This document shows positions 41,443 through 63,228 of a stretch of DNA of 64,000 nt, in pieces. A program made the translations under genes and the position numbers. Source of the stretch: Gemmatimonadota bacterium (GTDB lineage: Bacteria; Latescibacterota; UBA2968; UBA8231); assembly GCA_038153405.1 (NCBI GenBank), contig JAYOYH010000007.1, positions 32,001 through 96,000 of the forward strand. Direction: 5' to 3'. A model generated the notes under the pieces. The model worked only from the letters and a program-made list of their open reading frames with translations, made no database searches and was not told the origin of the DNA. The stretch's first letter is position 1. Every line of letters begins with the position of its first letter.

Positions 41443-41482
41443 GACTGGGCTTTATAGCCTGATGTAAAGGTCGTATTGTTGA

Positions 41483-41542
41483 GTTTCATGCCGGGGAAGT
41501 TACTTCCTCGGCATGAAACCTATAGAGGCCTATGCCTTTTTT
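41483..41542 (+). other. 17-bp stem-loop followed by a short hairpin and U-tract
   Basis: GTTTCATGCCGGGGAAG-tta-CTTCCTCGGCATGAAAC (41483-41519), then AGGC-ctat-GCCT-TTTTT. Confidence 0.75.
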
Positions 41543-41607
41543 CACTACAATACAAATTTGGATACGTGCCCGTGCGGGTGCGTGTCGAGGATGACGGGGA
41601 GCCGACG

Positions 41608-44600
41608 GTGAAAACGCCCTTCAAGGTGAATTTAAGCCAAATAGCACGGTTCTTGGCGTTGGTTGGCTTATGGACGCTTGCCTCCCAGGCCGATGCGCAG
41701 CGCCATCCGGAATCGCAGGGCCCCTTGCCCTACTATCGCGATGAACCGGGGGTGTTGCCGGAGCCTGAATGGCTGCATCGCCCCGAGTTCATCCGTGGGC
41801 CGCGGGATCGCTATGAGCGCGGTGCCAATCGACTGTTTTTGGCCACAGGGGACGACGTTCCCTACCTCAACTACGCCGAAGAGCGCTTTATCCTCTCGCA
41901 GCGAGAGTTAATTCCTTGGTTCCAGCCCAAAGGCCGTTCTTGGAAATTTCGCAACACGCGCTGGGATCGCATGGGCAATTATATGGGATCCCCCTCCAGT
42001 ACATCCTCGCCGGCCAGCGGTTATTTGCGGCTGTTTTCTTGGGAGGAAACGCGCAGCGACGACGACGGTTTAGGGCGCAGTTTTATCGACCATCGCTCGC
42101 CTTCGCCGTGGGGGCCGCCTGCCGGATATAACGACGCCACTTTGCGCATAGGTCATTACAACTATAAAGATCTTCACTGGACGGCTACCGTCGGTCAGAG
42201 TGTGCGCAGTTATTTCACGCCGTTGACGCTAGCGCAAAGCCATCTTTCCGTGGCGCGCTTGGACTTCGATAATAAATTCGGCAAAGACCGCGCCACGATT
42301 CTGCTCAACAGGGGGCGGACGCGGCCCGGTGGCCTCTTTTCCGAATGGGCTTCCGTTGGCGGTGAAACCGAAGATGCCAACCCAGTCCTTATGTACGGTC
42401 TCCACTACAAGCATCGCTTCGGCCGCTACGCCCAATTTGGCACGACGCTCCTCAACCAGGTTTTGAACCAACCCGGATCCGGCAGCAGCAGTCCTTTGAA
42501 GGGCGATCTGCCCTACGATATGCTCGGTCCGCGCGTGATTCGCGTGTTCATCGCCGATGATTCACCCAGAGAGAGCCTGCACAATGCCAAGGTCTACGGC
42601 GTCGACATCGTCGTTCGCGGCACGCGCGGAGACCAGCCCGTGACCCTTAGCAACCGCCAGGGGGAATTCTACGACCCGGGTTTAGAGCCGGTAGTGGCAG
42701 GTGGGCGGTTGCTGAGCGGAGATGGGCGGGAGGCGGTCGGTCTTGAAACGGTCGTGTATGAATTTACTATTCCGGGTGATATTACGGCGACCTCGGCCCG
42801 CTTCTTCGCCGATGTCTCCAACGACTATCGAATTGGCATTCGGCAAATCTACGATTTTCCCGGCATTAGCCGCTCGGGCGAGCTCGATTTGGAAGAGCGG
42901 GTTTGGCCCGACGACTTCGTCACCACCGAATCCGTCACGCGCCGCCCCTTTAAGTGGGATATCCAGGAGGGCGAGGAACCCTATTATACGGTGGCCCGTT
43001 CGGAGGGCGTGGGGCAAAATGGTTCAAACCGTCGCGTCGTGCAGTTCGATCACGGCATTCCCACGGGCCAGAACCTATTTTCGTTCGACGCACAGGCCAA
43101 TCTCATCGGTCTGAAGTTCAGCGGCGAAATCGTCCGCAACAATCAGAATTACATCTATCCCGTAGGCCGCAATGACGGGCGGCGGACCAGCCACAAGGCG
43201 TTGGCCTATTGGCTCAACGTCAAAAAGGATATTGGGATTGCCAAGCGCTTGGGCGCGCAGCTGGGCGCCGAGTTTTTTCGCTTGGATCCCAGCTATAGCG
43301 GCGGCTATGACAGCCAGCGCGGCGGCATGGCCTTCCACTTAGATCTGCAGGAATCACCGGGTGGGCGCGTGAAGTCGGATACGCAGGAGTACGGACTGGT
43401 CGAAGACAACGACGACGACGATCAGTGGCCCGATGATTTTGTCGAAGATACAGCCTCGCCGGGACGCCTTTCTTACCCCGGTTGGCCCAACGCATCCGTA
43501 TATCCGGGCTTGGACGAAAATCTCGACAATATTCCCGACGTCGACCGCAACGAAAACTTTGTGCCCGATTGGAACGAGGCATTTCTCACCTACGATGTCG
43601 ATCCGCCAGAGTTTGTCTACGGAATAGACTTTAACAACAACGGCATGCCGGATTTTCGCGAGAACGACGACTTGCCCGACTATCCTTATCGCCGGGATCA
43701 AAAGGGACGCCACTTCTTCCTATTGCTTGACCGCTTGGGCGGCTGGGGCAAATCCATTTCCGCTGGCTACTATAAGTCGAACGAGATTGCTGGCGGGACT
43801 GAGGCCAAAAGCATGTACCTGCGCTATGCTCTCGAAAAGCAGCGAGATGGGGTGGGGAGTTTACAAATCAACATCGATACCAAGATCGTAGAGGACAATA
43901 TTCAAGACGATAGCTACGTGTATATCGTCCCGCCCAACGACGACGATGTCATTCCCTGGCTCAACAAGCCGGACCATCATCCCGACGTTGCCGGTCGCTA
44001 CCGTCCTGCAACGCCCGATCCGCTGCTGATGCGCGACAGCTGGGTCAATACCGCTTATATCGACGCCGATTACCTGAAGATTGCGAATATGCGCATTCAC
44101 AATGCGCTGCTGTGGACGCGCAACAGCATGTCCGAGATTCCCCTTGAAGGAGGCGGAGATGGCGAGTTGTTGCAGGCCGAAGACGTCCGCTCGCGCCTCA
44201 TCGTGATCAACAAAGTCGATCGAACCTGGTTGCTTAAGTCCATCGCGATTTCGACCAAGTTCAAACACCGCTTAATCTACGAAAATGTCGACAGCGAAGA
44301 AGATCCGCGCATATCAGCTTCCGATTTTATTCCCATCGTGATGGGGGAGTATGCGCTGACGCCCAAGACCCGATTGGTGCTGGGCGCACAGGGCATGCCT
44401 TTTTTGCCCATGAAGCACTGGGATAGAGCCAATAAAGACGGCACTTATTCTCAGACCGACTACGCCTTCATGTACAAGATGCGCTCGGAGTATTTCGGTT
44501 TTGAAAACGACTTCTTCTTCGGCTATTTGCTTACGGATAGGCAGCACACTCGATTGCGCGACCGCGACTTCAATCGCGGCACGTTTTTCGTCGAAGTCAT

Positions 44601-44613
44601 AACGCCATTCTAA
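41608..44613 (+). CDS. Large putative outer-membrane beta-barrel protein A (~1000 aa), uncharacterised
   Basis: GTG after GGGGAG; signal peptide ADA-Q; amphipathic beta-strand runs; ends FFVEVITPF; Asp-rich insert. Confidence 0.6.
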   Translation: MKTPFKVNLSQIARFLALVGLWTLASQADAQRHPESQGPLPYYRDEPGVLPEPEWLHRPEFIRGPRDRYERGANRLFLATGDDVPYLNYAEERFILSQRELIPWFQPKGRSWKFRNTRWDRMGNYMGSPSSTSSPASGYLRLFSWEETRSDDDGLGRSFIDHRSPSPWGPPAGYNDATLRIGHYNYKDLHWTATVGQSVRSYFTPLTLAQSHLSVARLDFDNKFGKDRATILLNRGRTRPGGLFSEWASVGGETEDANPVLMYGLHYKHRFGRYAQFGTTLLNQVLNQPGSGSSSPLKGDLPYDMLGPRVIRVFIADDSPRESLHNAKVYGVDIVVRGTRGDQPVTLSNRQGEFYDPGLEPVVAGGRLLSGDGREAVGLETVVYEFTIPGDITATSARFFADVSNDYRIGIRQIYDFPGISRSGELDLEERVWPDDFVTTESVTRRPFKWDIQEGEEPYYTVARSEGVGQNGSNRRVVQFDHGIPTGQNLFSFDAQANLIGLKFSGEIVRNNQNYIYPVGRNDGRRTSHKALAYWLNVKKDIGIAKRLGAQLGAEFFRLDPSYSGGYDSQRGGMAFHLDLQESPGGRVKSDTQEYGLVEDNDDDDQWPDDFVEDTASPGRLSYPGWPNASVYPGLDENLDNIPDVDRNENFVPDWNEAFLTYDVDPPEFVYGIDFNNNGMPDFRENDDLPDYPYRRDQKGRHFFLLLDRLGGWGKSISAGYYKSNEIAGGTEAKSMYLRYALEKQRDGVGSLQINIDTKIVEDNIQDDSYVYIVPPNDDDVIPWLNKPDHHPDVAGRYRPATPDPLLMRDSWVNTAYIDADYLKIANMRIHNALLWTRNSMSEIPLEGGGDGELLQAEDVRSRLIVINKVDRTWLLKSIAISTKFKHRLIYENVDSEEDPRISASDFIPIVMGEYALTPKTRLVLGAQGMPFLPMKHWDRANKDGTYSQTDYAFMYKMRSEYFGFENDFFFGYLLTDRQHTRLRDRDFNRGTFFVEVITPF

Positions 44614-46050: not shown

Positions 46051-47697
46051 GTGGTGAGGAAGATTGCCTTGGTATCAATGGTAACCATGCTGACGGCCTT
46101 TCCCAGCGCAGTGGATGCTGCAAGCCAAACGGTGACTTGGCGTTGGGATGGCGAGGATGCGAGTGTCTTGCAGTTGCTGCAGACAAGCGTTGACGTCGGC
46201 CGCGGAGTTGTGTTGGACGTGCTCTCGCCAGACAAAAATATAGCTTTGGGAGCGATCGCGCGGAACGATTTTGGTCTGCGTGAACCGCTGACGGACGGGG
46301 AGGTCTCTCTGGTTGCCAGCGAGTGGATATCCAATACGCCGAACGTATTCGGTCGATATTTCACCGTTGACCTTGGTGTAAACCGTGCGATAACGCGGGT
46401 GCGGGTGCGGCCCGGTCAAACCGCGATTAACCAACCGGAATACTACATCCGCGGATACAGAGTGGAAGCGGCCTTGGAAAATGATCCGGATATTTGGCGT
46501 CTGCTGGCCGAAGAGCGCACGAACTTCAATTTGCTAATTGACACCGGTGCGGACTCTACGTGGGCCGTTGTGGCCGATGGTCAACTCGCTTCTCGTTTGG
46601 GCCGCTACGTGCGCTTTACCATTACCCGGCAGGACCGCAGCAATTGGGTGGCAATTGGCGATATCGAGGTGTTCGGCGAGGGCGTTGAGGCTGAGGGTAC
46701 GGCTCAATACACCTGGTTGCCGCAAGCACCGGTGAATGTGGGGCGCATACGGTGGCAGACCGAAGACCGTGCAGAGGGATTTAGTCTGTCTGCCAAGGGC
46801 GGTGATGAAACGTGGTCTACCGTCAACCCGCTGGAGTCCGATCGGTCTTTTGCAGGAGCTGAACCGATCGACTCGCTGCAATTTATGGCCTCGCTGTCGA
46901 CTCACGATCCGTTTGCCACGCCCGTTTGGCGCGGGGTAGAGGTCGAATACGACACGCGCTTAGTCGCCGACGGGGCGTTGGGGGCGGTTGAGCCCAACGC
47001 GGTTGCCCGCGGGGAGTGGGCCGAGATTAACTACAGCATTGAACTGGCACTGCGAGCGGATAATTACGGTGTGGATAGGGTGCTATTGGACGGAACGGCG
47101 CTGGTCGTTGATGGGCTGCGCGTGGATGGCGTCTTGCTGAGCAATAATGAGTATAGCTACAGCGCCAACGACGAATTGGGTCAGACTGAGATACAGATAA
47201 ACCGCGCGGTCTTGCAGACGGCTCTGCTCCAAATAGAAGGCCGGGGCCTTTTCCTCAACGAGGTAACGGAGATAGGATTTCGCGTTGGCAATGCGCAGCA
47301 GGAAGAAGCCGACGGCTATATTAACTGGCAAAACGGCCGAGAGAGCCCGGTGGCTAGTTGGCGCGTGCGCGCTCAGGGAACACCCGGCGAATTGCTCGGC
47401 GAGATCGAGCTTTCCGAGCGGCCATTCTCGCCCTACGAAAGCAAAGAGCTGACGTTCAAGTTTATCGTCTCCAATTTGAACAACCCAACGGATATCGTCC
47501 TTTCGCTCTATCGTTTGAACGGCGTGCGGGTCCGGCAAATGCAGCAAAACGGCGGTGCGCGGCCCTATGAATTCCGCTGGGATGGAAGGGATGAAGGGGA
47601 CCGATTGGTGGACCCCGGTCTCTACTTGTACGAGGTAAGAGTAGCCGGTGGCGGCGAGAGGAGCGGGCGGCGAGGAACATGCGTTGTCGCCTATTAG
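46051..47697 (+). CDS. Exported protein with discoidin-like domain and C-terminal FlgD-Ig/T9SS-CTD-like domain
   Basis: Signal peptide; FTVDLG..RYVRF..IGDIEVFG; PFSP..LYRLNGVRVR..WDGRD..VDPGLYLY..GTCVVAY. Confidence 0.75.
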   Translation: MVRKIALVSMVTMLTAFPSAVDAASQTVTWRWDGEDASVLQLLQTSVDVGRGVVLDVLSPDKNIALGAIARNDFGLREPLTDGEVSLVASEWISNTPNVFGRYFTVDLGVNRAITRVRVRPGQTAINQPEYYIRGYRVEAALENDPDIWRLLAEERTNFNLLIDTGADSTWAVVADGQLASRLGRYVRFTITRQDRSNWVAIGDIEVFGEGVEAEGTAQYTWLPQAPVNVGRIRWQTEDRAEGFSLSAKGGDETWSTVNPLESDRSFAGAEPIDSLQFMASLSTHDPFATPVWRGVEVEYDTRLVADGALGAVEPNAVARGEWAEINYSIELALRADNYGVDRVLLDGTALVVDGLRVDGVLLSNNEYSYSANDELGQTEIQINRAVLQTALLQIEGRGLFLNEVTEIGFRVGNAQQEEADGYINWQNGRESPVASWRVRAQGTPGELLGEIELSERPFSPYESKELTFKFIVSNLNNPTDIVLSLYRLNGVRVRQMQQNGGARPYEFRWDGRDEGDRLVDPGLYLYEVRVAGGGERSGRRGTCVVAY

Positions 47698-48547
47698 AAG
47701 CTGGTTGTTGTTCATTAATTGTTTGGGACTCAGTGTCGTAGGGCCAGTCGGCGCCGCGTTTGAAACGGGGGCAGGGGCGTATTCCACTGCGCTGGGCAAC
47801 GCTTTTTCGGCCGGGGTAGAATCGGCCGAAGGAGTATGGTTTAATCCTGCGACCTCTGCTAGGCTGCGTTTGCCGCGCGTCGCCATAACGCAGGGTGCGC
47901 TCTACTCAGGGCTGAGCGATCGCCCAAGCATCAGCGCTGCAGCCGGTGTTTGGCCCCGGCGCTGGGGCACGCTGCAGGCGGGTTTTTCCGGCCTGTGGGC
48001 AGATGATTGGGCTGAAAGCCAGTGGCTATTGGGCTACGGTCGCGTGCTGCACCCTCGGTTGTCGGTTGGAGCGCAGCTGCGGACGGCCAGTTGGAGTTCG
48101 GGGCGCTATGGGCAGCGCCGCTGGCTGGCCACCGTCGGTGCCCTATACGAAGCGGGGTGGGTCAGTTCGCGTTCCTACGTTCGCTTTTCGGCTGTCGTGG
48201 CCAATATAGGCCGGCCCGATTCCAAGTCGGCCAGGGCGTCGGGTATGCCCGCGCGTTCGCATACGTTGGGCATGCAGGTTCGAAATGCAACGCGTGCCCT
48301 CTTGCTCGACTTGGTCGAACAGGGCGGCGATTGGCAGGCGCGCTGCGGGTATGAATCGGTGCTGCGCGCCGAATTAAAGCTGCGGCTTGGAGCGACGGTA
48401 TTGCGGGGTGATACCGTAAATAAGACCGGGCATATAGGACTGGGGTACGAGTGGAAAAACGTGCATTTTGACTATGCGTTTTCGCGTTCGTACGACCTAA
48501 ACGACTTCGGGGCCGACCACCGTTTTGGCATTGGCTATGCTTGGTGA
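47684..48547 (+). CDS. PorV/PorQ/PorP-like outer-membrane beta-barrel
   Basis: TTG after GAGGA; GAYSTALGNAFSA..GVWFNPA and DYAF..HRFGIGYAW. Confidence 0.72.
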   Translation: MSPIRSWLLFINCLGLSVVGPVGAAFETGAGAYSTALGNAFSAGVESAEGVWFNPATSARLRLPRVAITQGALYSGLSDRPSISAAAGVWPRRWGTLQAGFSGLWADDWAESQWLLGYGRVLHPRLSVGAQLRTASWSSGRYGQRRWLATVGALYEAGWVSSRSYVRFSAVVANIGRPDSKSARASGMPARSHTLGMQVRNATRALLLDLVEQGGDWQARCGYESVLRAELKLRLGATVLRGDTVNKTGHIGLGYEWKNVHFDYAFSRSYDLNDFGADHRFGIGYAW

Positions 48548-48646
48548 GGTTTCGGACGCAACGAAAAGGCAAAAGGATTCGCTGAGCGGAGGCGAATGTC
48601 CATGAAAATAGAGCGGTTTTTATACTTCTCGGGTGAGGGAGCAATT

Positions 48647-51577
48647 ATGGAGCACGCGAATCGCGGTTATCGCTTGAGGTTACACGTCCTCGGGGTGCTT
48701 TGCGCGCTGGTCGCTCTGGGCGATGTCGGGTTTGCGCAGACGCACCTGCGCGATCGCGACTTTCTCAATCTGGGCTCGACAGAGGGCTATCTCAACTACG
48801 GCCGCACGGAATACGAGCCCTATCCCGAACTCATTAGTGCGCGCAATCGCTACGACCGCCTGGGCAATTTTCAGATGCGCGGCCACAGGACGTTCACCTG
48901 GGAACTCCAGCGTCCTGGGTTTAGCGAAATCAGCACGCGCTCTGAGCAGTATCTGGGTTGGTTTAACAACCTCATCATTATGAATGATACTTACCGGGGT
49001 TGGGATTTCGGGGTGACGGTTGGTGAGGATATCCGCACTAAACTCACCGATTTGACCTTCCACGATCCGCGCTACTACGGTATTCGCATGGACGGCGCGT
49101 CGGCCGATAACCGCTTTACGCTACTGCTTAGCCAGGGCGGCACGCAGGCCACGCAGTCGCCCAATCCCAAGTTTTCCACTTTTCAGGGCGGCAAAGAGCG
49201 TTCGTCTGTGCTGATGTTTGGTGGACACTGGGAGACGCAGTTGGGCAATATCCTCAAACTGGGCGCTACTTATTTCAACCACCATATGTTGGATACGTTC
49301 AATGACAAGGGCGCCTTTGTCCGCGGCGATACACCCTATAGCATGCTGGCGCCCGCCTTTATTACGATCATCGTCGAGGACGATTCGCCCGATGCCAATC
49401 AGGTCGGTGCCGTCGTATACGATGTGGGTATCGAAATTCAGGCCGAGTCGCTGGGGCAGCAAATCCGCCTTAGCAGCTTGGAAGGCGATGCCAACTACGA
49501 TCCCACTCTGAGGCCGACGGTAGAAGGCGGCCTTCTCAACGCAGACGGCGGTCGTCACGTCAGCGGCGACGGCCAGCGCGTATTCTACACTTTCCGGATG
49601 CCCGAGTTCGCCCTGCCCGACGCGGCCGACTATGCCAACGATCCGTCCGCGGCGTTAAACGGACTCACGGTCAAATCGGTTCGCTTTCTGGCCGATGTAG
49701 CCGGCGATTACAGAATATTGGTTAAGCAGCAGCACCTCTTCTTCAATGAATCGGCCTACGAGAAGAACCTCGAAAAAGAGTATGTGCCCGGCGATAATAG
49801 CTACGTCAATCCATTCACCGGTTTGAAAGGAGCGGATGCCCTGCTGAGTCCGCAAGAAGCCTACGAAGCGGGGGAAGAAATATTCAAGCAGTGGCCGGTG
49901 CCGCCCAACCAGTCGATTAGCCAACTCAACCCCTTTATGCAGTTCAAATGGGATCTGGAAAACCCAGAAGAGGTGGCCTATACCGTCGTCCGCGCCGAGT
50001 CCAACTCAACCGATCTGAGCAACCGCCGCATCGTGAGCTTTGACTACGGCATTCCCACCGGGCAAGCGCTATTCGGTCTCAATAGCCACCTGACGTTGGG
50101 TGGATTTGATGTCAAGGCCGAGTTCGTTACAAATCCGCAGTATTTTATCTACCCGATTGGGAATAATGCGGGCAAGCGATTTCAGAAGAAGACGTTGGCC
50201 TACTTCATCAATGCGGTCAAGCGCTACGAGTCGCTGTCCTTTGGCGTTGAACTCTTCCAACTCGACCCCGACTACGGCGGCAATTACGACAGCATTCGCG
50301 GTGGCGTGCCCTTTTTTACTGATGTGGCGCAAACCGGTTCGCAAATGCAGGAAATATTCGTCATGACCGACAACGACGACAACGATCAGTGGCCCGACGA
50401 ACTCATCGTCGAACTGCCTAGCGCAGACCGCCAAGATTCGGGCGTTTTTCCCGGCCTCGACGAAAACCAGGATCTGGTGCCCGATACCGATCAGAACCTC
50501 AACGGCATCGCCGACTGGACCGAGCCCATTATTTTTTACGATGCCGATCCACCCGAATTCGTCTACGGCCTCGACTTCAACAACAACGGCGTAGTCGATT
50601 TTCGCGAAAACGATGGGTTGCCCGATTACCCCTATCGCCGTGATCGCCGCGGGTTCCACCTCTTCACGCGCAAGGACGGCCTCGGCTTGTTGGGTAAGAC
50701 CCTTTCGCTGGGCTACTACGACACCAAGGAAGTGGCTGGTCGCGGCAGGGCCAAGGCCATCTACGCGCGCTACGAGTACAGCACGAACTCACCGTATTTG
50801 GGCCGTATTCGCATCAACGAGGATATCAAACGCGTAGAAGACAGTATTCGCGATGACGTCTATATCTGGCGCGATCGCAGCGTGCAGCGCATCGACTCGC
50901 CCTATCCGCACATCACGCCGCGTCAGATAGAGGAGCGCGACCTCAACTCGCAGTTGCTGCCGCCCGACAGGGACCCGTTGCTGATGCGCAACAGCCTAGT
51001 CAATACCCTCTTTATCGAGGCACGCACCAGCCCCATCATCGATTTTAATTTGATCAACAACATTCAATGGCTGCGCAACAGCCAGTCAGCTGACGAGTTT
51101 GACGACGGCGTAGTACAAGAAGAGGACGTCCGTTCGCTCATCACCATGGTCAATAAAGTCGACTATACGATCCGCGCTGGAAATGTTACGGTAAAGCCCA
51201 TGTTCAAGCATTTGCTCCTGCGCGAACACTCGCAAAAGCTCGATCGCGAACAGGGTCAAGGCAGCACGCGCTCGTTTTCCATTTTTACGCCGATTTTGCG
51301 CACCCGTCTCGATCTGACCAACAAATCCTACCTGCAGCTGGGATTTCAGGGGTTGCCGTTCTGGCGCTACACCAAGACCGACCGCGTCGACAGCAGCCAG
51401 AATTTCAAGGAGTGGACTACCGTATTCATGTTGACCAATCGATCGGATTACTATGGTTTTGCGCTGTCGACTCAAATTGGCTGGGAGACTACCCGCCGCG
51501 AGTATGACGACGAGATCAATTCGGCGCTCAACCGCAACAGCTCTACGCTGTTTTTCGATGTGCTGGCCGGCTTTTAA
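48647..51577 (+). CDS. Large putative outer-membrane beta-barrel protein B (~976 aa), paralog of A
   Basis: ATG after GAGGGAG; signal peptide GFA-Q; colinear motifs with protein A; ends LFFDVLAGF. Confidence 0.6.
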   Translation: MEHANRGYRLRLHVLGVLCALVALGDVGFAQTHLRDRDFLNLGSTEGYLNYGRTEYEPYPELISARNRYDRLGNFQMRGHRTFTWELQRPGFSEISTRSEQYLGWFNNLIIMNDTYRGWDFGVTVGEDIRTKLTDLTFHDPRYYGIRMDGASADNRFTLLLSQGGTQATQSPNPKFSTFQGGKERSSVLMFGGHWETQLGNILKLGATYFNHHMLDTFNDKGAFVRGDTPYSMLAPAFITIIVEDDSPDANQVGAVVYDVGIEIQAESLGQQIRLSSLEGDANYDPTLRPTVEGGLLNADGGRHVSGDGQRVFYTFRMPEFALPDAADYANDPSAALNGLTVKSVRFLADVAGDYRILVKQQHLFFNESAYEKNLEKEYVPGDNSYVNPFTGLKGADALLSPQEAYEAGEEIFKQWPVPPNQSISQLNPFMQFKWDLENPEEVAYTVVRAESNSTDLSNRRIVSFDYGIPTGQALFGLNSHLTLGGFDVKAEFVTNPQYFIYPIGNNAGKRFQKKTLAYFINAVKRYESLSFGVELFQLDPDYGGNYDSIRGGVPFFTDVAQTGSQMQEIFVMTDNDDNDQWPDELIVELPSADRQDSGVFPGLDENQDLVPDTDQNLNGIADWTEPIIFYDADPPEFVYGLDFNNNGVVDFRENDGLPDYPYRRDRRGFHLFTRKDGLGLLGKTLSLGYYDTKEVAGRGRAKAIYARYEYSTNSPYLGRIRINEDIKRVEDSIRDDVYIWRDRSVQRIDSPYPHITPRQIEERDLNSQLLPPDRDPLLMRNSLVNTLFIEARTSPIIDFNLINNIQWLRNSQSADEFDDGVVQEEDVRSLITMVNKVDYTIRAGNVTVKPMFKHLLLREHSQKLDREQGQGSTRSFSIFTPILRTRLDLTNKSYLQLGFQGLPFWRYTKTDRVDSSQNFKEWTTVFMLTNRSDYYGFALSTQIGWETTRREYDDEINSALNRNSSTLFFDVLAGF

Positions 51578-51621: not shown

Positions 51622-54600
51622 ATGCTTCTTGTGAATCTTCTCGTGATTGCCATAATGGGCGGAGCTGTGGGGTTGACGTCGCGCTATTTTTCCCCGCAAG
51701 AGCTGCAAGATCGCTTTGGCTTTGGGCAAAAGCTCTATGCCTTGGGCGACTACGAGAAGGCCTTGCCTCATTTCGAAGCCGTTATGGCGACGAAAAACAA
51801 CATCACGATCAACGTCGAAGATGTCACTGTTACTCTCGACGAGTTTATCTTGCCCGTGCGAGTTGCTGCCACCTATCAGCTGGGCAATACGCACAACAAG
51901 CTGGGGCAGGACAAACTGCGCCGCTCGGGGTTCTTGCGCGCAGAGGGCAAAGAGGATCAAGCCGATCAGCGCTACCAAGAGGCATTGGAGGAATTCAAGC
52001 GCAGCTTGGAGTATTTTGGCGAAATAAGCGCTGGCGAAGAAATCGATGAGCGCACGCGGGTTATGGCGCAATTCCAGACGCTTGAAACCAACTACAAGCT
52101 CAAGCAATTTGATAGCGTGATTGAAGAGGGGGAACGCCTGCTCGAGCAGTTTCCCAACAGCGTGTATGAGACGGCCGCTTACTATAATATCGGCTGGTCG
52201 TATTACGAATTGGGTCAATACGGCAACGCTATCGACAACTTTAAAGAAGTGATAACGCTGTCGCCGCGCGGTTCGCACGCCGACCGCTCATACTTTCAGA
52301 TCGCCGAATCGTACGGCAATTTGGAAGAGTACGACCAATCGCTGAACTACCTGGACCGGCTCATACGGCGCTATGACTTTTCCGCGATGTCGGAAAAGGA
52401 ACTGATAGAAATGGCCAGCCTCAAGCTCAAAGGCCTCGTCGAGGAGACCTCGCGTGAATTGGTCGCCAAAGCACAGCTCAAGCGCGGCGATATTTTTTCC
52501 CGGCGCGGCGATGTAGATATGGCGCTGGCGGCCTATGCCAATGTGCCGGAAAAGTATCCGATGGAGACGGCACTAGTCGAGAATGCCTACATTCGCTCAG
52601 CCGAACTGATCAACGAAACGCGCGGCACCGACGCGGCGCTTATCGCCTACCAGAGCGCCATTGAAAACGTTGACGACAAGCGCTTTCAGGCCAGAACTCA
52701 GCTGACGATCGCGCGCTTGCTGTTTGAAAAAGATGCCTTTGAACGGGCGGCCGAGCAGTACCGCATCTTCCTCAGCGCCTACGGAGACGTGGCGGCGCGC
52801 ATTGGCTTTGCCGAAGACAAGGTGCTCTTCCGCATCAGCCAGTGTCACCAAGCGCTGATTCGCACGCACTTGGCCAACGGCAATGCCGATGGGGCAGACG
52901 AAGCAACGGCTGAGGCGTTGAGGATCTACGACGAGCTGCTAGTCAAACACGGCGATAGCCCGCTGTTGCCCGACGTCTACTTCTCGCGCGGTTACGCCCG
53001 CCAGCTAATAAAAGACGCAGGAGCAGCCGACGACTTCACGCATATGGTTAGTACCTACCCCGATCACCCAGCCGCCCCCAATGCGCTTCTGCAGCTTGCG
53101 CGCATCGACTTTGAGGCGGGTAAGTTCCAGAGGGCACAGGCGACCTATGAGCGATTGCTGACGGACTTTCCCGAATCTGACCCGATCAATCCCGCGCGTA
53201 TGGAACTGGGTCTGTGCTTCAAGAATATGAACGACCTGACCCGCGCAATCGCCTCCTTTGAATCGATTGATTCGCAGTGGAGCCAGTGGGGCAAAGTGCA
53301 GGCTGAGTTGGCCGACCTCTACGTGCGTTCCGGCGATCGCTCGGGTGCCAAGCGCGTGCTCGAGCGCGCTATGGAGCAGGTTGACAGCGATGAACTGCGC
53401 GGACAGCTCGTTTACGTAAAATCGCGCGTCCACTTCACCGAGGCCGAGTATCGCGAGGCCATTGAAGGCTTTTCGCAAGCGCTGGAACTGCCTATTCGCG
53501 AAGATATTTACAACGGTTCGCTTCTCTCGCGGGGCAGTGCATACTACGAACTGGCCAAAACGCTCGATGCCAAGGGCGATACGGCGCGCGCGCGCGGCGA
53601 ATACGAGTTGTCTTTGATTGATATGAAAGCGCTCCTTGAGCGCGACCCGCCAGCCAACATAAAGGACAGCGCATTTCGTACTTTGGGTGCGGGAATGATC
53701 CGTCTGCAGCGAGAGGACGAGGCCGTTCGCTACTACAAAGAGCTCATCGCATCCAGCGATGATCAGCAGCAGCGCGCGACGTTTCAAATGCTGCTGATGG
53801 AGCTCTATTTTGATCAGCAGGCCTTCGAACAGTCTGAAATCTTTGCCCGAGAGCTCCTCGAAATGGATTTCGAGGACGACAACAACGCCGGCTATTACCG
53901 CAAAGAACGCGCCTATTCAATAATTGGCAACGCGCTTGTTCAGCGCAAAGATTATGCGGAAGCCAGTAAGATTTTCGCCGAAGGGCTAGCCCAGTATCCA
54001 CAGTCGGGTGAGAGCGCCAACCTGGCCTTTTCCAAGGCGTTTTCTGATTTCAATGGCGGCGATTACGAACTGGCCGCTAAGGGGTTTGCTTTTTATGTCA
54101 ATTCGTTTTCGAACGATCGCAATGCCGTACACGGCCAGTACTACCTGGCCCATAGCTATCAAATGCTCACCGACTTTGATAGCGCGGCGACGTCATTCAG
54201 TGAGCTAATGGATCGCTATCCTCGCTCGAACTATACCGAAGAGGCGATGTTCTTAGTCGGGGAAAATTACTACAACAAGCGCGATTTCGCCGCCGCTTCG
54301 CAGGCCTATTCTACGCTGCTAGAGCGCTTTCCGAAGGGAAGGTATGGCGACGCGGCTCTGTACGCCAAGGCCTGGTGCGAATTCGAGCAAGAAGATATGG
54401 AAGCGGGAGTGGCTTCAATGGCCCAGCTCGTAAGCAACTTTCCCCAAAGCGAGTTTGCCGCCAAAGCTCAGTTTACGGTTGGCGATTACCACTACAACAA
54501 CCGCAACTATAAAGAGGCGCTCAAAGCCTACTCTGTCTTGATCGAGTCCTATGCCTCTACGCCGGAAAAACAGCGCGCAGAAGCTCTCGTCGAAGAACTG

Positions 54601-54894
54601 AGCGAAATCGAGGCGAGTTTGGATTACGCTCAGGTTATGGGCAAATTCGAGTCAAAAGACTATGAAAATGCCATTAGGGGTTTTAAGGAAATTATCGAGA
54701 AATATCCCGATACCTATACGCAGCTGGCTGCCTATTGCAATCTGGGGCTCACCTACGAGATCCTCAGGCAGTGGCCTCAAGCTGTCGAGAATTACGATCA
54801 AACCCTGGCCAGAGGGGAGGGCGATATCGAAAATTCGGACGTCGTCAATTTTGCTCGTCTGCACCGGGATTGGATCGTCGAAAACAGGCTATAA
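51622..54894 (+). CDS. 1090-aa TPR protein with BamD/CpoB-type repeats
   Basis: N-terminal hydrophobic segment; many L...(Y/F)P.S.....A repeats. Confidence 0.85.
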   Translation: MLLVNLLVIAIMGGAVGLTSRYFSPQELQDRFGFGQKLYALGDYEKALPHFEAVMATKNNITINVEDVTVTLDEFILPVRVAATYQLGNTHNKLGQDKLRRSGFLRAEGKEDQADQRYQEALEEFKRSLEYFGEISAGEEIDERTRVMAQFQTLETNYKLKQFDSVIEEGERLLEQFPNSVYETAAYYNIGWSYYELGQYGNAIDNFKEVITLSPRGSHADRSYFQIAESYGNLEEYDQSLNYLDRLIRRYDFSAMSEKELIEMASLKLKGLVEETSRELVAKAQLKRGDIFSRRGDVDMALAAYANVPEKYPMETALVENAYIRSAELINETRGTDAALIAYQSAIENVDDKRFQARTQLTIARLLFEKDAFERAAEQYRIFLSAYGDVAARIGFAEDKVLFRISQCHQALIRTHLANGNADGADEATAEALRIYDELLVKHGDSPLLPDVYFSRGYARQLIKDAGAADDFTHMVSTYPDHPAAPNALLQLARIDFEAGKFQRAQATYERLLTDFPESDPINPARMELGLCFKNMNDLTRAIASFESIDSQWSQWGKVQAELADLYVRSGDRSGAKRVLERAMEQVDSDELRGQLVYVKSRVHFTEAEYREAIEGFSQALELPIREDIYNGSLLSRGSAYYELAKTLDAKGDTARARGEYELSLIDMKALLERDPPANIKDSAFRTLGAGMIRLQREDEAVRYYKELIASSDDQQQRATFQMLLMELYFDQQAFEQSEIFARELLEMDFEDDNNAGYYRKERAYSIIGNALVQRKDYAEASKIFAEGLAQYPQSGESANLAFSKAFSDFNGGDYELAAKGFAFYVNSFSNDRNAVHGQYYLAHSYQMLTDFDSAATSFSELMDRYPRSNYTEEAMFLVGENYYNKRDFAAASQAYSTLLERFPKGRYGDAALYAKAWCEFEQEDMEAGVASMAQLVSNFPQSEFAAKAQFTVGDYHYNNRNYKEALKAYSVLIESYASTPEKQRAEALVEELSEIEASLDYAQVMGKFESKDYENAIRGFKEIIEKYPDTYTQLAAYCNLGLTYEILRQWPQAVENYDQTLARGEGDIENSDVVNFARLHRDWIVENRL

Positions 54895-54930: not shown

Positions 54931-55599
54931 ATGTCGGAAAATTTTATAGTCGGCCAGTTTCTCAAGGGCGGTCCAATGATGTGGCCGCTATTGATCTGTT
55001 CTCTCATTTCGATGGTCGTTGCCATCGACCGCCTGTTGAGCTATATGCGCCTGCCGTCTGAGGAAGAGGCGGAAGCACATCTTTCGGAAGTGGAATCGGT
55101 GTTGGAAAAGGGCGGCGAAGCGGCCGCCGTAGAGCACTTCAAGGCGAATAAAGGCGTGCTCAATTACGTTTTTGCCGCGTTGTTAAAACGCTATGACTCG
55201 CTCGTTTTAGAGAATCGGACGGATGTGGAGGATATGCGGCAGGAACTCATCACGGTTACGGAAGAGGCGGGCATCGACTATCTCGGCCGTCTGCTCAATG
55301 CCTTAGGGACGATTGGGGTGCTCGCACCGCTCATGGGGCTGCTGGGAACGATCGTGGGAATGATCCGCGCCTTTGACGCCATTGCCCAGGCCGGTGCCGG
55401 CGATCCGGCCGCCGTGGCCAGCGGTATTTCCGAAGCGCTTATCACCACGGCTTCGGGTCTGATCGTGGCCATTCCGACCATCGTCTTTCACCGTTACCTA
55501 TCTGCCCGGGCCGACAAGGCGTATAAGGAGATTGAACTCTACTGCCATGCCTTCGCCAACACGCTTATCGTTCGCTTTAGCAATCAGCGCGAGAGCTAG
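54931..55599 (+). CDS. exbB: MotA/TolQ/ExbB proton channel protein
   Basis: GGPMMWPL, APLMGLLGTIVGMI, GISEALITTASGL; GGAGG RBS. Confidence 0.93.
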   Translation: MSENFIVGQFLKGGPMMWPLLICSLISMVVAIDRLLSYMRLPSEEEAEAHLSEVESVLEKGGEAAAVEHFKANKGVLNYVFAALLKRYDSLVLENRTDVEDMRQELITVTEEAGIDYLGRLLNALGTIGVLAPLMGLLGTIVGMIRAFDAIAQAGAGDPAAVASGISEALITTASGLIVAIPTIVFHRYLSARADKAYKEIELYCHAFANTLIVRFSNQRES

Positions 55600-55614: not shown

Positions 55615-56061
55615 ATGCCCAAAAGGCCAGCACTAGCTCGGCGAATAAAGGGCAAGGCGCGCAATAATGCGCGTTTTGCGACCAGTACAGATCCGGATAT
55701 GACGCCGTTGATCAACTGCATCTTTCTGCTATTGGTCTTCTTTATGGTGGCGACGACCTTTCTCAATACTAAGGGGCTTAGCGTTGATTTGCCTGGAGGC
55801 CAGGGGGATGATTCTTCGCGCGCTAGCAAAGATATCAACATCGTCATAGAAAAAGACGGTGCGATACAGGTCAACGGCGAATTGACGACGACCGAGCAGC
55901 TTGCCGAGCGGATTGGCAATATCGTTCAGTCCGATAATATCAAGAATGTGATTATAGAGGCGCATCGCACCGTTCGACACCAAACGGTGGTCCAGGTCGT
56001 CGATATCGCGCGCGGACAGGGTATCCAAGCGGTGGCTTTTGCCAAGTCGGCGGAGGGCTAG
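55615..56061 (+). CDS. exbD: ExbD/TolR-family protein with Asn at the conserved TM Asp
   Basis: MTPLINCIFLLLVFFMV; VDLP; VIIEAH..VVQVVD. Confidence 0.88.
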   Translation: MPKRPALARRIKGKARNNARFATSTDPDMTPLINCIFLLLVFFMVATTFLNTKGLSVDLPGGQGDDSSRASKDINIVIEKDGAIQVNGELTTTEQLAERIGNIVQSDNIKNVIIEAHRTVRHQTVVQVVDIARGQGIQAVAFAKSAEG

Positions 56062-56063
56062 CC

Positions 56064-56513
56064 ATGGCGCGCAGAATGCAGACAAGCGATGCCAACAACA
56101 ACGATCTTAACCTGACACCCCTGATTGACGCGGTCTTTCTATTGCTGGTCTTTTTTATGGTCACGTCAGTTTTTGTACAGGCCACGCAGTTAAAGATCGA
56201 GTTGCCCATTGCCGACAACTACGACAAGATCGACCAGGAGAAAAAGCTGAGCCTGCTCATTTCGGCCGAGGGGCAACTCGAGTTTAACAGTCAGTTGGTG
56301 AGCATGGGCCAGTTGACCGGCTTCATTGAGGACGAACGCCTGCGTTCGGGGTCGGGCACCCTCATCATAACGGCCGATGCGCAAACGCCGCACGGCTTTG
56401 TACTCGATGCGATGGAAATGGCGGTAATGGCAGGTGTGAGCAAGATCGACCTCGAAACCGGCGAAAACAAAGCGGCCGGAGAGGCCAGCGCCGCGGCCGC
56501 AGCAAAGGAATAG
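56064..56513 (+). CDS. exbD: ExbD/TolR-family protein, canonical Asp
   Basis: LTPLIDAVFLLLVFFMV; IELP; LIITAD..HGFV. Confidence 0.92.
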   Translation: MARRMQTSDANNNDLNLTPLIDAVFLLLVFFMVTSVFVQATQLKIELPIADNYDKIDQEKKLSLLISAEGQLEFNSQLVSMGQLTGFIEDERLRSGSGTLIITADAQTPHGFVLDAMEMAVMAGVSKIDLETGENKAAGEASAAAAAKE

Positions 56514-56516
56514 CGA

Positions 56517-57311
56517 ATGACGTCCCTTCGGTTGAGTTCTATTGCCCTGTGTATGTCCCTTATCGCCACGCTGAGCGGATGTGCCTATCTGGCCAGCCTC
56601 ATCCCGCAAGAGATGTATTACGAAATCTCTCTCAGCCCTTTGCTGCCCGAGGGGAGAGGTGAGTATCAGGTTGACCCCGACGATCCCCAAGCGGTGACGT
56701 TTAGCCACGAGGGCATGGTCGTACGGGTGCGGCCCTATACCGACGACGAACTCAACGCGCTCTATCCACCGCTCTTTGACGGGCGCCATACCAATCCCTA
56801 CACCACCGATCAACTCAATGTGGATCTCGGCTACGTGCCGCCGATTTTTATGGTGTTTGACATAACGGTGGTCAACCAGACGTATTCCAAGATCGAATTT
56901 GACCCGGCTAGGACTTTGCTTACGACCAATACCGGACGCAAGCTGCGCTATTACGATCCCGGTAGAGCTGGAGAGGGCGTAGATCCGCTGGGTGGAAACC
57001 GCTTTAGCACCTATTATCAGACGGAGCGGGGCCGTTCGGGTATCGATAAGGACATCAACTTGGAACGCATGGGCCTTATTTACAAAACGGCTTTCCATCG
57101 CTTTCGCCCCGTCTTTCGCGGCGACGAGCGCAGCGGCACGCTGACCTTTGATAAGTTGCCTCCCGATGCGACCGAGGTGGTCCTTTCAGTTGATGACTTC
57201 GTCCTTTCTTTTGACGCGAGCGGCAACCCCGAACGGACCATTGACTTTGAGTGCCGGTTTAAAGTCAACCAGGGCGTTGTTGAAAGCCAAGTCGATCCGC
57301 TGTTAGATTAG
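56517..57311 (+). CDS. Lipoprotein, paralog of 44619-45380
   Basis: LSGC lipobox; shared motifs with the 44619 gene. Confidence 0.75.
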   Translation: MTSLRLSSIALCMSLIATLSGCAYLASLIPQEMYYEISLSPLLPEGRGEYQVDPDDPQAVTFSHEGMVVRVRPYTDDELNALYPPLFDGRHTNPYTTDQLNVDLGYVPPIFMVFDITVVNQTYSKIEFDPARTLLTTNTGRKLRYYDPGRAGEGVDPLGGNRFSTYYQTERGRSGIDKDINLERMGLIYKTAFHRFRPVFRGDERSGTLTFDKLPPDATEVVLSVDDFVLSFDASGNPERTIDFECRFKVNQGVVESQVDPLLD

Positions 57312-59199: not shown

Positions 59200-61200
59200 A
59201 TGGATCTGAACGTGGCCGATGCAAGAGGGCAGGAGCGCTTCGAAATAATGCCCGAAGACGCGCCGTTTGAGCCAGGGTTTAATATCAAGACGCTCTGGGC
59301 GGCGCTCTTTGTCGGATTCGTTATGTTGCCGGGGGCTATTTACCTCGGATTGGTGACCGGGCAGAGTATGGCCGGCGGCGCCGAGTGGGTGACGCTCATT
59401 CTCTTTATCGAGATTGCCAAGCGCACCTTTGTCCGCCTGCGCACACAAGAGATTATTATTCTCTACTGGGTGGCCGGTGGCTTGGTGCTGATGGGGGGGA
59501 AGCTAGGCACGGGGGCCGACCTGTTTGGCGGTCCGTTTGGCGTGCTCATTTGGGATCAGTATTTAATTCAATCCCCCCAGGCCAATGGCTTGGCCGAGCA
59601 CATTCCGGATTGGGTCGTGCCGCCGCGCGGATCGGAAGCGCTGCTCGAGCGCAGCTTTCTGCACGCGGCCTGGATCAAGCCGATTTTCATATTGCTCGTA
59701 GCGGTGGTACTACAGCGGATCAATGCCCTCTCGCTAGGCTATGCGCTCTTTCGCATAACCCACGATATAGAGCGCTTGCCCTATCCCATGGCCTATGTGC
59801 AGGCTGGGGGAGCTACCGCTCTTGCAGAAACCTCATCGCAAAAAGAAGGTTGGCGCTGGCACGTATTCAGCACGGGTACTTTTATCGGGGCGGTCTGGGG
59901 TCTGTTGTATGTCGTGGTGCCAACGCTGTCTTCTGTATTTCTCACGGAGACGGTTTCCGTTCTGCCCATTCCCTTTATTGATTTCACGGTGCCCATGAAG
60001 TCGGTGCTGCCGGCTGCAGTAATCGGTTTGGCTACCGATCTCATTCACGTGCTCATTGGATTGGTGCTGCCCTTTTGGGTTGTCGTGGGCGTATTTTCAT
60101 CGTCTATTCTAGCCAATCTGGTGGCCAACCCGCTGCTCTATGCCAGTGGGGTATTGCACACCTGGGAACCGGGTATGTCGGCTATTCCGACGATGATCGC
60201 CAATTCGTTCGACTTTTGGCTGAGCTTCTCCATTGGGGGGGCTATCGTCGTGGCATTGGTCGGTTTTACCACGGCATTTATTTCGCTGCGCGCGGCACAG
60301 CGCTCCGTGGCGCAGCCATCTGATCGAGGCGGTCCCAGCCCCGAGCGCGGCGATATACGCATCGTCTATGCATTGGGTATCTGGGCGTTGAGCACGCTGG
60401 CCTTTGTTGGGATGGTTTACTATCTGGTGCCCCAATTCCCCTGGTGGATAACTGCCTTTTTTGGCTTTGTGTGGACCCCTATTTACTCCTATATCGGCGC
60501 GCGCATGGTCGGTTTAACTGGCAGCCCACAGGGGGTGACTTTTCCCTACCTGCGCGAGGCGAGCTTCTATCTTTCGGGTTATCAGGGCGCGGGGATTTGG
60601 TTTGCTCCCGTACCGATCTTCCAGTGGGGGTATGAGGCGCAGACCTTTAAGCAACTCGAGTTAACGCGCACTCGCTTCGGTTCGCTAATAAAAATGACGG
60701 CCCTGACCCTCTTGGTCATGTTCGTCTGCTCGTTTTTGTTTTGGTCGCTCATTTGGAAATTGGGACCGATTCCCTCGTCGGCCTATCCCTATGTGCAAAA
60801 GCTCTGGCCCTTTCACGCGACGATGCAGGCTTTTTGGGTCAAATCGACGCTGCCAGGTGCCAGTTCGAACCTGCTGACGCAGATCATTCGCTGGGACTAT
60901 ATCGGCATCGGGTTGCTCTTCAGCAGCGTGCTCTACGCCGCCCTCCACGTGCTGCACGCGCCGATGGCTATTTTCTACGGTTTTGTCGCTGGGCTCGGAC
61001 AGTGGCCGCACTTTGTGATCTTAAATTTTATTGGAGCCATGCTCGGGCGCTTTTACCTGCAAAAGCGCTTTGGCGAGGAACGCTGGCGGGCCTATGCGCC
61101 GATTTTGCTGGCCGGCTATTCCTGTGGGGTGGGACTCATTGGCATGAGTTCGATTGCCATTGCCCTGATTTCCAAAGCCGTTTCACAGGTCGTCTTTTAG
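59200..61200 (+). CDS. Polytopic membrane protein, OPT-like 'peptide transporter'
   Basis: 666 aa, many TM helices; FEPGFNIKT, IERLPYPMA. Confidence 0.65.
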   Translation: MDLNVADARGQERFEIMPEDAPFEPGFNIKTLWAALFVGFVMLPGAIYLGLVTGQSMAGGAEWVTLILFIEIAKRTFVRLRTQEIIILYWVAGGLVLMGGKLGTGADLFGGPFGVLIWDQYLIQSPQANGLAEHIPDWVVPPRGSEALLERSFLHAAWIKPIFILLVAVVLQRINALSLGYALFRITHDIERLPYPMAYVQAGGATALAETSSQKEGWRWHVFSTGTFIGAVWGLLYVVVPTLSSVFLTETVSVLPIPFIDFTVPMKSVLPAAVIGLATDLIHVLIGLVLPFWVVVGVFSSSILANLVANPLLYASGVLHTWEPGMSAIPTMIANSFDFWLSFSIGGAIVVALVGFTTAFISLRAAQRSVAQPSDRGGPSPERGDIRIVYALGIWALSTLAFVGMVYYLVPQFPWWITAFFGFVWTPIYSYIGARMVGLTGSPQGVTFPYLREASFYLSGYQGAGIWFAPVPIFQWGYEAQTFKQLELTRTRFGSLIKMTALTLLVMFVCSFLFWSLIWKLGPIPSSAYPYVQKLWPFHATMQAFWVKSTLPGASSNLLTQIIRWDYIGIGLLFSSVLYAALHVLHAPMAIFYGFVAGLGQWPHFVILNFIGAMLGRFYLQKRFGEERWRAYAPILLAGYSCGVGLIGMSSIAIALISKAVSQVVF

Positions 61201-61323
61201 CCCGATTATAGATCGTTATTTATTCGCTGTTTCCACGGCAATACGCCGCTCCACCGATCCCCTTGAGATGCGTTAATGGATGTGAAATGCGAGCCATGCT
61301 GCGCACCATTTTGACGAACCGCC

Positions 61324-63228
61324 ATGACCTATAGATCGTTCATATTGGGCACCTTGGTGGTGCTGGCTGTGGTCTGCGGGGCGCCCTATGCCATCTGGAT
61401 GGTGCGCTCGTCGGAAATCACGTGGTCCTATTTTCCCACCAGCGTTGGCTTTTGCTTTGTCGTCCTCTTTTTGCTCAATGCACTCATACAGAAGGTGAGC
61501 GGTCGGTCTTTTCTACAGCCAAGTGAGTGGGCGATTGTCGTGATTATGGGTTTGGCGGCCACGGGTATACCGACCTTTATCGTCGGCACGCTATTGGCCA
61601 TTATTTCCAGTCCATACTACGGGGCAACGCCCGAAAATGACTGGGAGGGCAATATTCACGCTTTCCTCCCCGACTGGCTGGTGCCTAGCCCCGAAGGCGG
61701 AGCCATGCGCCATTTCTACGAGGGGCTGCCCGCCGGCCAGGAGGTGCCCTTTGACGTCTGGATGGGGCCGCTGTTCTGGTGGCTGAGTCTTATTTTTTCC
61801 ATCTACTTTATCTGCTTTTGCATGGTCGTGCTGTTTCGAAGGCAGTGGGTTGAAAACGAGCGCTTGGTCTTTCCGCTGATGGAAATGCCGCGCCTATTGG
61901 TCGACGAAGATGGTCGTCATCTGCTGCGTTCTAAGCTATTCTGGGCCGGGTGTGCTGTGCCCCTGTCTATGATGCTGTTTAACGTGGTGGGTTATTTCTA
62001 CATTGGGTTTCCGCAAATAAACTTTCACCACCCCGTTACGATCGAGTTGAGTCGCGATTTTCCCGCACTCTCGCTCATGCTCTACTTTCCCGTCATCGGT
62101 TTTATGTATTTGGTGAGCACCTCCGTTTCGCTCAGCATCGTCGTCTTTTACCTAATCGCTGTTCTGCAGGAGGGGATTACCAATCGCATTGGCTACGACG
62201 TGACGCGCCCCGATGCCTGTGTCTGGGGCATGCAGTCGCTTTCCTGGCAGGCGTGGGGCGGATTTACGGCGATGGTGCTGATCAGTTTGTGGATGGCTCG
62301 GCGACATCTGGGCGCTGTCGCTGGCCAGGTCTTTGCCGGGCAAAGGACCGTGGACGATAGCGAGGAGATGATTTCCTACCGCACAGCGGTTTACGGTTTC
62401 CTCTTGGGGTTGCTCTACGTGGTGGGCTGGCTGTGGAAATCCGGTATGGATCTGCACGTCGCCCTGCTCTTTATCGGCGCCGTATTGATCGCCTATTACG
62501 GCGTTACCCGCCTGGTTATCCAGGCCGGCATTTACTTTCTGACCCCCCCAGTGGGTGCCCAAGCATTTGCCCTAGCCATAACCGGCACGAGCATTGGCGG
62601 TCACAACTTGGTTGCTCTGGGGCTCTCCTACGCCTGGTTTGGCGACGTGCAGTCGCTCTTTATGCCGGCGGCTGCGCACGGGGCGCGCCTAGCCGAAATT
62701 TATCGCGTGCGTCGCGGTATGGCTTGGGCGCTGGGGGCGGCCGTGCTGATCGGTTTTGTCGCCAATATCTACTTTGTCCTGACGCTGTGCTACAAGTTTG
62801 GCGCGGGCAATTTTGGCTCCTGGTACTTTGTTGCCGGGGGCGGAGCAGGAGGCATGGCTTTTAACGGAGTCATTCGCCATTTTAACGATCCCTGGCCGAT
62901 GGATGTAAACAAGCTTAGCTACTTTGCCATTGGAGCATGTGCCTACGCGCTGCTGGCATTTTGTCAATATCGCTTTTACTGGTGGCCACTGTCGCCCGTA
63001 GGGATTGCCGTCGCACCACTGTGGATGACGCGTCTGATCGTGTTTTCGGTCTTTTTGGCTTGGGTGAGCAAGAGTGCCATTATGCGCTATGGGGGGATTA
63101 GCGCCTACCGCACGGCGCGGCCATTTTTCATGGGGCTGATCGCGGGTTATTTTCTCGGCGTCGGCATTTCCTACTGCATAGATGCCATTTGGTTTATGGG
63201 GGACGGACACGTTTATTTTCACGGCTAG
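61324..63228 (+). CDS. Polytopic membrane protein, DUF6785/DUF6784-like
   Basis: 634 aa; LPDWLVP..FYEG, RRQWVENERLVFPL, FYWWPLSPVG, RYGG....RPFFMGLI. Confidence 0.7.
   Translation: MTYRSFILGTLVVLAVVCGAPYAIWMVRSSEITWSYFPTSVGFCFVVLFLLNALIQKVSGRSFLQPSEWAIVVIMGLAATGIPTFIVGTLLAIISSPYYGATPENDWEGNIHAFLPDWLVPSPEGGAMRHFYEGLPAGQEVPFDVWMGPLFWWLSLIFSIYFICFCMVVLFRRQWVENERLVFPLMEMPRLLVDEDGRHLLRSKLFWAGCAVPLSMMLFNVVGYFYIGFPQINFHHPVTIELSRDFPALSLMLYFPVIGFMYLVSTSVSLSIVVFYLIAVLQEGITNRIGYDVTRPDACVWGMQSLSWQAWGGFTAMVLISLWMARRHLGAVAGQVFAGQRTVDDSEEMISYRTAVYGFLLGLLYVVGWLWKSGMDLHVALLFIGAVLIAYYGVTRLVIQAGIYFLTPPVGAQAFALAITGTSIGGHNLVALGLSYAWFGDVQSLFMPAAAHGARLAEIYRVRRGMAWALGAAVLIGFVANIYFVLTLCYKFGAGNFGSWYFVAGGGAGGMAFNGVIRHFNDPWPMDVNKLSYFAIGACAYALLAFCQYRFYWWPLSPVGIAVAPLWMTRLIVFSVFLAWVSKSAIMRYGGISAYRTARPFFMGLIAGYFLGVGISYCIDAIWFMGDGHVYFHG

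Follow-up and report, generated by a model that had tools for sequence, protein, structure and literature searches.

A tandem exbD pair with Asn and Asp at the axle site

The window analysed here (the whole stretch of DNA under study, 64,000 nucleotides long) carries a ring-subunit gene, exbB, followed by two axle-subunit genes, exbD1 and exbD2, all in the same direction and flanked by a gene for a TPR protein and one for a putative lipoprotein (Table 1). The two exbD genes are separated by 2 bases. A promoter and terminator scan yielded 4 and 4 sites, respectively, as compared with 1.5 and 2.5 expected, and was uninformative.

Both exbD products matched PF02472 in a Pfam profile search (ExbD1, 92.2 bits; ExbD2, 90.5 bits; cut-off 25.4), which together with the reading of the codons bears out the tandem pair with Asn34 and Asp22 given in the preliminary description. 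The near identity of the flanking membrane segments that it had noted also stands, with 13/16 positions identical in the membrane segment as compared with 22/103 in the periplasmic part. Hydropathy and the predicted model of ExbD1 (mean pLDDT 73.5) agree with the ExbD/TolR architecture of one N-terminal membrane helix, at residues 30-53 of the model, and a periplasmic alpha/beta domain. In a profile of 35 ExbD1 orthologues, Asn34 aligns with Asp25 of E. coli ExbD (6tyi_Y), as well as with the equivalent Asp of Serratia ExbD (7ajq_F), so that the essential Asp is found in only one of the two axle helices of this locus, at Asp22 of ExbD2, a residue that is invariant in the aligned orthologues (26/26). 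None of the residues D, E, H, K or R occurs in the ExbD1 helix at any of 39 loci, and the ExbB helix consensus holds no new acidic or basic residue; judging by these alignments, there appears to be no acidic residue that compensates for the lost Asp. The genome contains seven ExbD matches, and the other five all carry Asp. We conclude that both proteins belong to the ExbD/TolR family, and that the locus has an Asn/Asp axle pair.

The E. coli and Serratia Ton motor, ExbB5-ExbD2(-TonB) (6tyi, 7ajq, 9ddo), has in common with this locus the PF01618 and PF02472 subunits, the single ExbD membrane helix and the equivalents of ExbB T148/E176/T181, but here there are two different ExbDs, one of them without Asp, and no adjacent tonB. 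The locus does not qualify as a Ton system proper: tonB is absent from this contig (C7), the genome's matches to TonB_C lie on contigs C52 and C2, and no TonB-dependent transporter was recognised, the barrel giving weak generic matches. With respect to the Tol motor, TolQ5-TolR2(-TolA), the best NCBIfam scores were those of tolQ and tolR, although the scores for ExbB, ExbD, TolQ and TolR were all below cut-off, and a TPR gene adjoins the locus here. In contrast to the Tol system, a scan of the 15 neighbouring proteins recognised no tolA, tolB or pal, and TolR forms a homodimer with two Asp residues.

Table 1. Positions of genes and codons at and around the exbB-exbD1-exbD2 locus, numbered within the window.
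Feature	Position	Strand	Description	Match or basis
Divergent MotA/ExbB-like ORF	25590-26366	+	no exbD match beside it	PF01618, 30 bits
Candidate TonB/TolA-like force transducer	37972-39153	-	393 aa	PF13709 (DUF4159)
Paralogue of large barrel	41476-44613	+		matches the same paralogous genome loci; aligned family
PorV/PorQ-like small barrel	47648-48547	+		NF033709, 32.9 bits, below cut-off 90
Large predicted outer-membrane beta-barrel	48596-51577	+	993 aa	model pLDDT 78, long antiparallel strands
TPR protein	51622-54894	+	1090 aa; directly upstream of exbB in orthologous loci
exbB	54931-55599	+	ring subunit	MotA/ExbB PF01618; alignment to 5sv0_B
exbD1	55615-56061	+	148 aa; ExbD/TolR-family axle subunit, Asn at Asp25 position	PF02472
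Asn34 codon AAC (exbD1)	55714-55716	+
exbD2	56064-56513	+	149 aa; partner subunit with canonical Asp	PF02472
Asp22 codon GAC (exbD2)	56127-56129	+
Conserved putative lipoprotein	56517-57311	+	directly downstream of exbD2

The Asn codon is conserved and the subunit is under purifying selection

The codon for Asn34 was covered by contigs from all four runs that we compared (4/4, from four studies), without a differing letter. Two of these runs (X5 and X7) are DNA libraries and two (X9 and X13) are RNA libraries, and contigs of the latter span parts of exbB, exbD1 and exbD2, presence in an RNA library being no proof of transcription. Asn was found in 91/99 ExbD1 homologues, the window's own included (85 by pattern and 6 by eye), while five homologues were cut before the site and three had Asp, one of these being a true orthologue-like sequence and two chimeric-looking. 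The homologues that carry names belong to Candidatus Latescibacterota, with two records titled Gemmatimonadota and one Opitutia. Across the phylum, an Asn ExbD1 is present in 40/168 genomes, which fall into six genera of a single family, that of the window, and in which the Asn is kept at identities down to 55%; 39 of these matched an Asn-helix DNA pattern (0 control matches), and the fortieth, G120, has one further change in the motif. The holders of the locus are estuarine and marine.

ExbD1 is under strong purifying selection. In genus g14 (19 loci chosen), dN/dS was 0.043 for ExbD1, 0.066 for ExbD2 and 0.074 for ExbB, and in the window's own genus, where 1 of 10 pairs was unsaturated, the values were 0.027, 0.043 and 0.014, respectively, indicating that the constraint on the Asn subunit is no weaker than that on its partners. 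Among 41 distinct orthologous genes the Asn is encoded by AAC in 40 and by AAT in one. A sequencing error or the decay of one copy, under which the orthologues would all carry Asp, can be set aside with near certainty: GAC to AAC is a single transition, but the Asn recurs in 40 genomes, with a synonymous codon, low dN/dS and four concordant independent runs, and is thus real and selected.

Asp was replaced within an older exbD pair

We compared 58 loci in which two exbD genes and an exbB were recognised, after removal of 6 duplicates; loci with only one recognised exbD, or with no recognised exbB, lie outside this set. In an IQ-TREE phylogeny of 28 hand-picked loci of the 58, built with the trait column removed, the 15 Asn/Asp rows formed one clade (support 93/93, which is below the level of a starred branch). 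Its sister was L010, the Asp/Asp orthologue from genome G017 (100/100), and the outgroup loci were all Asp/Asp. The G017 locus has the same neighbours, with the TPR gene upstream and the lipoprotein gene downstream. Within the window's own genome, a paralogous locus on contig C34 is likewise a complete cassette with an Asp/Asp pair.

A second tree, of 97 ExbD rows, drew on 24 paired loci and 2 single ones from the phylum, along with 25 of 80 metagenome loci. Here the first and second ExbDs formed separate old clades (SH-aLRT 98 each), which, together with the Asp/Asp sister and outgroups, indicates that the pair predates the Asn: specialised subunits came first and the loss of Asp followed. 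Asp thus changed to Asn once in this clade, within an older exbD1/exbD2 pair. At all Asn loci of the clade in the tree set at which both genes were assembled, the partner carries Asp (39/39). ExbD1 and ExbD2 co-diverge (rho 0.90), as shared descent of operon neighbours would by itself predict.

Three further features of the comparison may be recorded. The first subunit is more variable around the Asp site than the second. First-position ExbDs that keep the Asp (L010 of G017, P0089, L227 and L230) sometimes have Thr directly before it, where Ile is usual. In two Asp/Asp loci, L216 and L222, the exbD genes are separated by an inserted gene some 450 codons long.

Asn/Asp pairs occur in other lineages

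Searching metagenome contigs with the Asn-helix pattern gave more than 120 stretches among the matches listed, 80 of them with DNA. An adjacent Asp ExbD was present at 74/80 of these listed loci, a figure that carries no background rate of Asn since the pattern selects for it, and related loci among them are not independent of one another. The order was exbD(Asp)-exbD(Asn) in 66/80 listed loci and, on inspection, in 5/80 more in which the Asn gene was cut or missed by the regular expression; 3/80 had the Asn-Asp order of the window, 4/80 were cut at the contig end, and there was no Asn/Asn pair among the 80. The commonest layout among the matches listed was exbB-exbD(D)-exbD(N)-tonB, and TonB_C was found in 37/40 complete ORFs downstream of the metagenome Asn genes. 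Most of these loci look proteobacterial. In plasmid records we found no Asp/Asn pair from a named organism, and one further search returned only distant ExbDs.

A single origin of Asn was rejected when all 18 Asn rows of a 47-row subset were constrained to group together (p-AU = 8e-5, from a short alignment with long branches), and at least 4 changes were required. In one subgroup of the 97-row tree (L045, L057 and L075) the Asn subunit was sister to its own Asp partner (support 94). Asn therefore arose separately several times, and the pairing is widespread.

The Asn does not always stand beside an Asp at its locus: 2/80 listed loci (L056 and L069, Omnitrophota-like) have, behind a TPR gene, an exbB with a lone Asn ExbD after it. 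Among the 120 homologues listed for the L056 protein, which are named Omnitrophota, Asn is likewise present in 3, the others being 116 with Asp and 1 unread. Within this group the residue four positions after the site is Gln where the site is Asp (116/120 listed) and Leu where it is Asn (3/120 listed). The single Asn ExbD gene of L056 is at L056:2444-2845.

A candidate motor with one ion-carrying Asp

The preliminary description had offered three readings of the pair, namely an asymmetric heterodimer with one site, an altered ion specificity and a regulatory brake. Of these, the asymmetric heterodimer appears to be the best supported, on the grounds of gene order, conservation and convergence. 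We think it fairly probable that ExbD1 and ExbD2 form a working ExbB5-ExbD1-ExbD2 motor of the Ton/Tol type, in which one helix of each would lie in the pore of the ExbB pentamer and the coupling ion would be carried by Asp22 of ExbD2 only. Asn34 would act as a fixed mimic of a protonated Asp, and for this reason there would be no alternation between two sites; structures of MotB use D22N as such a stand-in, according to PMC9389320. The motor could then work as a one-site ratchet, with a stroke on ion binding and release at Asp22 followed by a reset, or by a passive step past the neutral ExbD1 helix, probably at a lower flux or leak. Force would pass to a His-anchored DUF4159 protein and from there to the operon's large outer-membrane barrels, a target and substrate suggested by gene order only.

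In Myxococcus, AglR-AglQ-AglS and the Oar-linked ExbB1-ExbD1-ExbD2 likewise combine a single ring gene with two axle genes that differ from each other. For the former, an AglR5-AglQ-AglS heterodimer is predicted in PMC11761067, and for the latter PMC6434023 describes two non-redundant ExbD-like subunits, in that deletions of either exbD gene give phenotypes and full function requires both. AglQ and AglS differ from the pair described here in that both have the conserved Asp, according to PMC9389320, and the partner genes also differ. The PVC loci of PMC12204202, with TPR, a tolQ-like gene, a heterologous tolR-like pair and a vWA transducer, share the gene layout, and an axle subunit with Asn is not mentioned for them in the available part of that paper. 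All Sphingobium axle genes retain the Asp according to the portion available of PMC8599685, while the corresponding text of PMC5225302 gives a duplicated exbD at the TM1040 heme locus with the residue not stated, and the excerpts of PMC11658791 and PMC11940233 contribute nothing on mixed dimers. A natural Asn ExbD or axle subunit was not described in the largely open-access literature that we searched.

The Asp of the axle subunit is called absolutely required in PMC12905483, which also states, in its available part, that the Ton/Tol mechanism has yet to be tested in vitro. In all rotary models of MotAB, ExbBD and TolQR, the channel opening alternates between two essential Asp residues, at 36 degrees per proton (PMC12215075). 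The reading of the locus as a one-Asp motor does not fit this alternating two-Asp model, and a functional motor of this kind, if real, would require the power-stroke model to be revised. The two sites of a homodimer are hard to change singly; natural heterodimers make this possible. The Asn/Asp motors of this group of uncultured marine bacteria probably depend on a single ion-binding site, where current models assume two. More broadly, we see an even chance that there is a repeatedly evolved and widespread 5:2 class with one titratable residue, in which an Asp/Asn axle powers TonB-dependent uptake and other envelope machines; were this so, two-Asp alternation, and perhaps continuous rotation, would not be needed. 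The contribution of the present locus is one recent origin for which there are matched Asp/Asp controls, the sister in G017 and the same-genome paralogue on C34; in the broader reading, the change from Asp to Asn would be seen here shortly after the event, beside Asp/Asp versions of the machine.

The behaviour of the E. coli protein, like the lone Asn ExbDs, tells against the one-Asp motor, and it also bears on a different reading, in which the active motors would be ExbD2 homodimers and ExbD1 would act in some of the complexes as a natural dominant negative, lowering their activity or ion leak. The D25N variant of E. coli ExbD has no activity and is dominant negative (10.1101/2022.09.26.509584, in its accessible part), suggesting that mixed D/N dimers work poorly in that organism, and an Asn that is selected and recurrent is what would be expected of a useful regulator. 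We nevertheless consider a brake or tuning subunit unlikely, because exbD1 and exbD2 adjoin and show no sign of being controlled separately, a fixed co-expression more in keeping with an obligate partner than with an inhibitor that can be switched, and because they were already distinct lineages when both had Asp. As a counterpoint to a fixed pairing, the five Asp ExbDs of the genome could mix with this ExbB. Annotation by analogy to D25N would wrongly label the Asn subunits as dead.

The ExbB ring and the coupling ion

ExbB residues T140, E168 and T173 correspond to T148, E176 and T181 of E. coli in the alignment to 5sv0_B, and the pore threonines T140 and T173 are kept. ExbB M135 and L131 accompany the Asn clade in a manner indistinguishable from shared descent. 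An additional threonine, T172, places T140, T172 and T173 at the positions of T158, T185 and T186 of PomA (register by motif), which form its Na+ site (PMC10374538). The T172-T173 pair was present in 71/71 ExbBs beside metagenome Asn ExbDs, among the matches listed, but also in 19/19 checked Asp/Asp loci of the phylum and in 4/6 plasmid-record controls with an Asp ExbD, and hence does not track the Asn.

These threonines, and the estuarine and marine habitats, would suit a sodium-coupled motor in which Asn34 still helps to bind Na+ and both helices take part in ion transfer. We regard this as quite improbable: Na+-driven PomB retains its Asp (PMC10374538, as far as available), and the other Asn lineages lack the Thr four residues before the site, a loss that points to the loss of an ion site. 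The extra threonine would allow sodium coupling and leaves the Asn unexplained; altered ion specificity thus gained no specific support, the threonine being common to Asp/Asp and single-Asp loci.

In four loci (L236, L237, L238 and L241) there are two different exbB-like genes with one Asp exbD, and in three of these the third-helix motif is altered in one of the ring paralogues, indicating that asymmetry of the ring occurs as well.

Neighbouring genes, candidate transducer and target

The protein encoded divergently at the left of the barrel genes has one membrane helix with a His, a basic and Pro-rich linker and a DUF4159 domain, and its His-helix presumably resembles that of TonB/TolA. Its gene lies 16.2-21.6 kb upstream of the locus, in divergent orientation, in 30/40 Asn genomes, is on another contig in 8 and is unlinked in 2. 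In several Asp/Asp loci a homologue immediately follows exbD2, and homologues also lie inside the paralogous loci on C34 and C85 of the window's own genome. We regard this protein as the leading force-transducer candidate. PVC loci have a His-anchored non-TonB transducer whose helix is likened to TonB/TolA (PMC12204202, available part); the candidate described here differs in ending in DUF4159.

A search of the PDB with the model of the 993-aa barrel returned weak generic barrel matches (TM-score <=0.23 by query length) and no family, and this barrel may, from its position, be a target of the motor. The lipoprotein had no match in Pfam or NCBIfam.

The absence of tonB from the operon, a change of ExbB E168 to Gln in 4/35 Asn loci, and the single Asn ExbDs at some loci would be compatible with a complex, or separate ExbD1 homodimers, retained not as an ion motor but to scaffold the TPR protein, the lipoprotein and the barrels. 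To this we give little credence, as Asp22 of ExbD2 is invariant, ExbB T140/T173 are kept, ordinary tonB operons have the Asp/Asn pairing equally, and the His-anchored transducer candidate remains linked.

The barrel family has many invariant Asp and Asn residues in repeated motifs at positions ~574-659, which we take to be, possibly, calcium-binding loops. Behind the gene for a PPIase, orthologous loci encode two large membrane proteins (59200-63228 in the window, + strand), one of them DUF6785/DUF6784, which may serve in the import of a substrate. Barrel, lipoprotein and PPIase genes (those of the window lie within 40465-63228) recur as many paralogues that far outnumber the motors: the 993-aa barrel is found at 11 further places in the genome, and paralogous copies occur on contigs C34, C85, C3, C4, C5, C6, C10, C12, C19, C35, C60 and C79.
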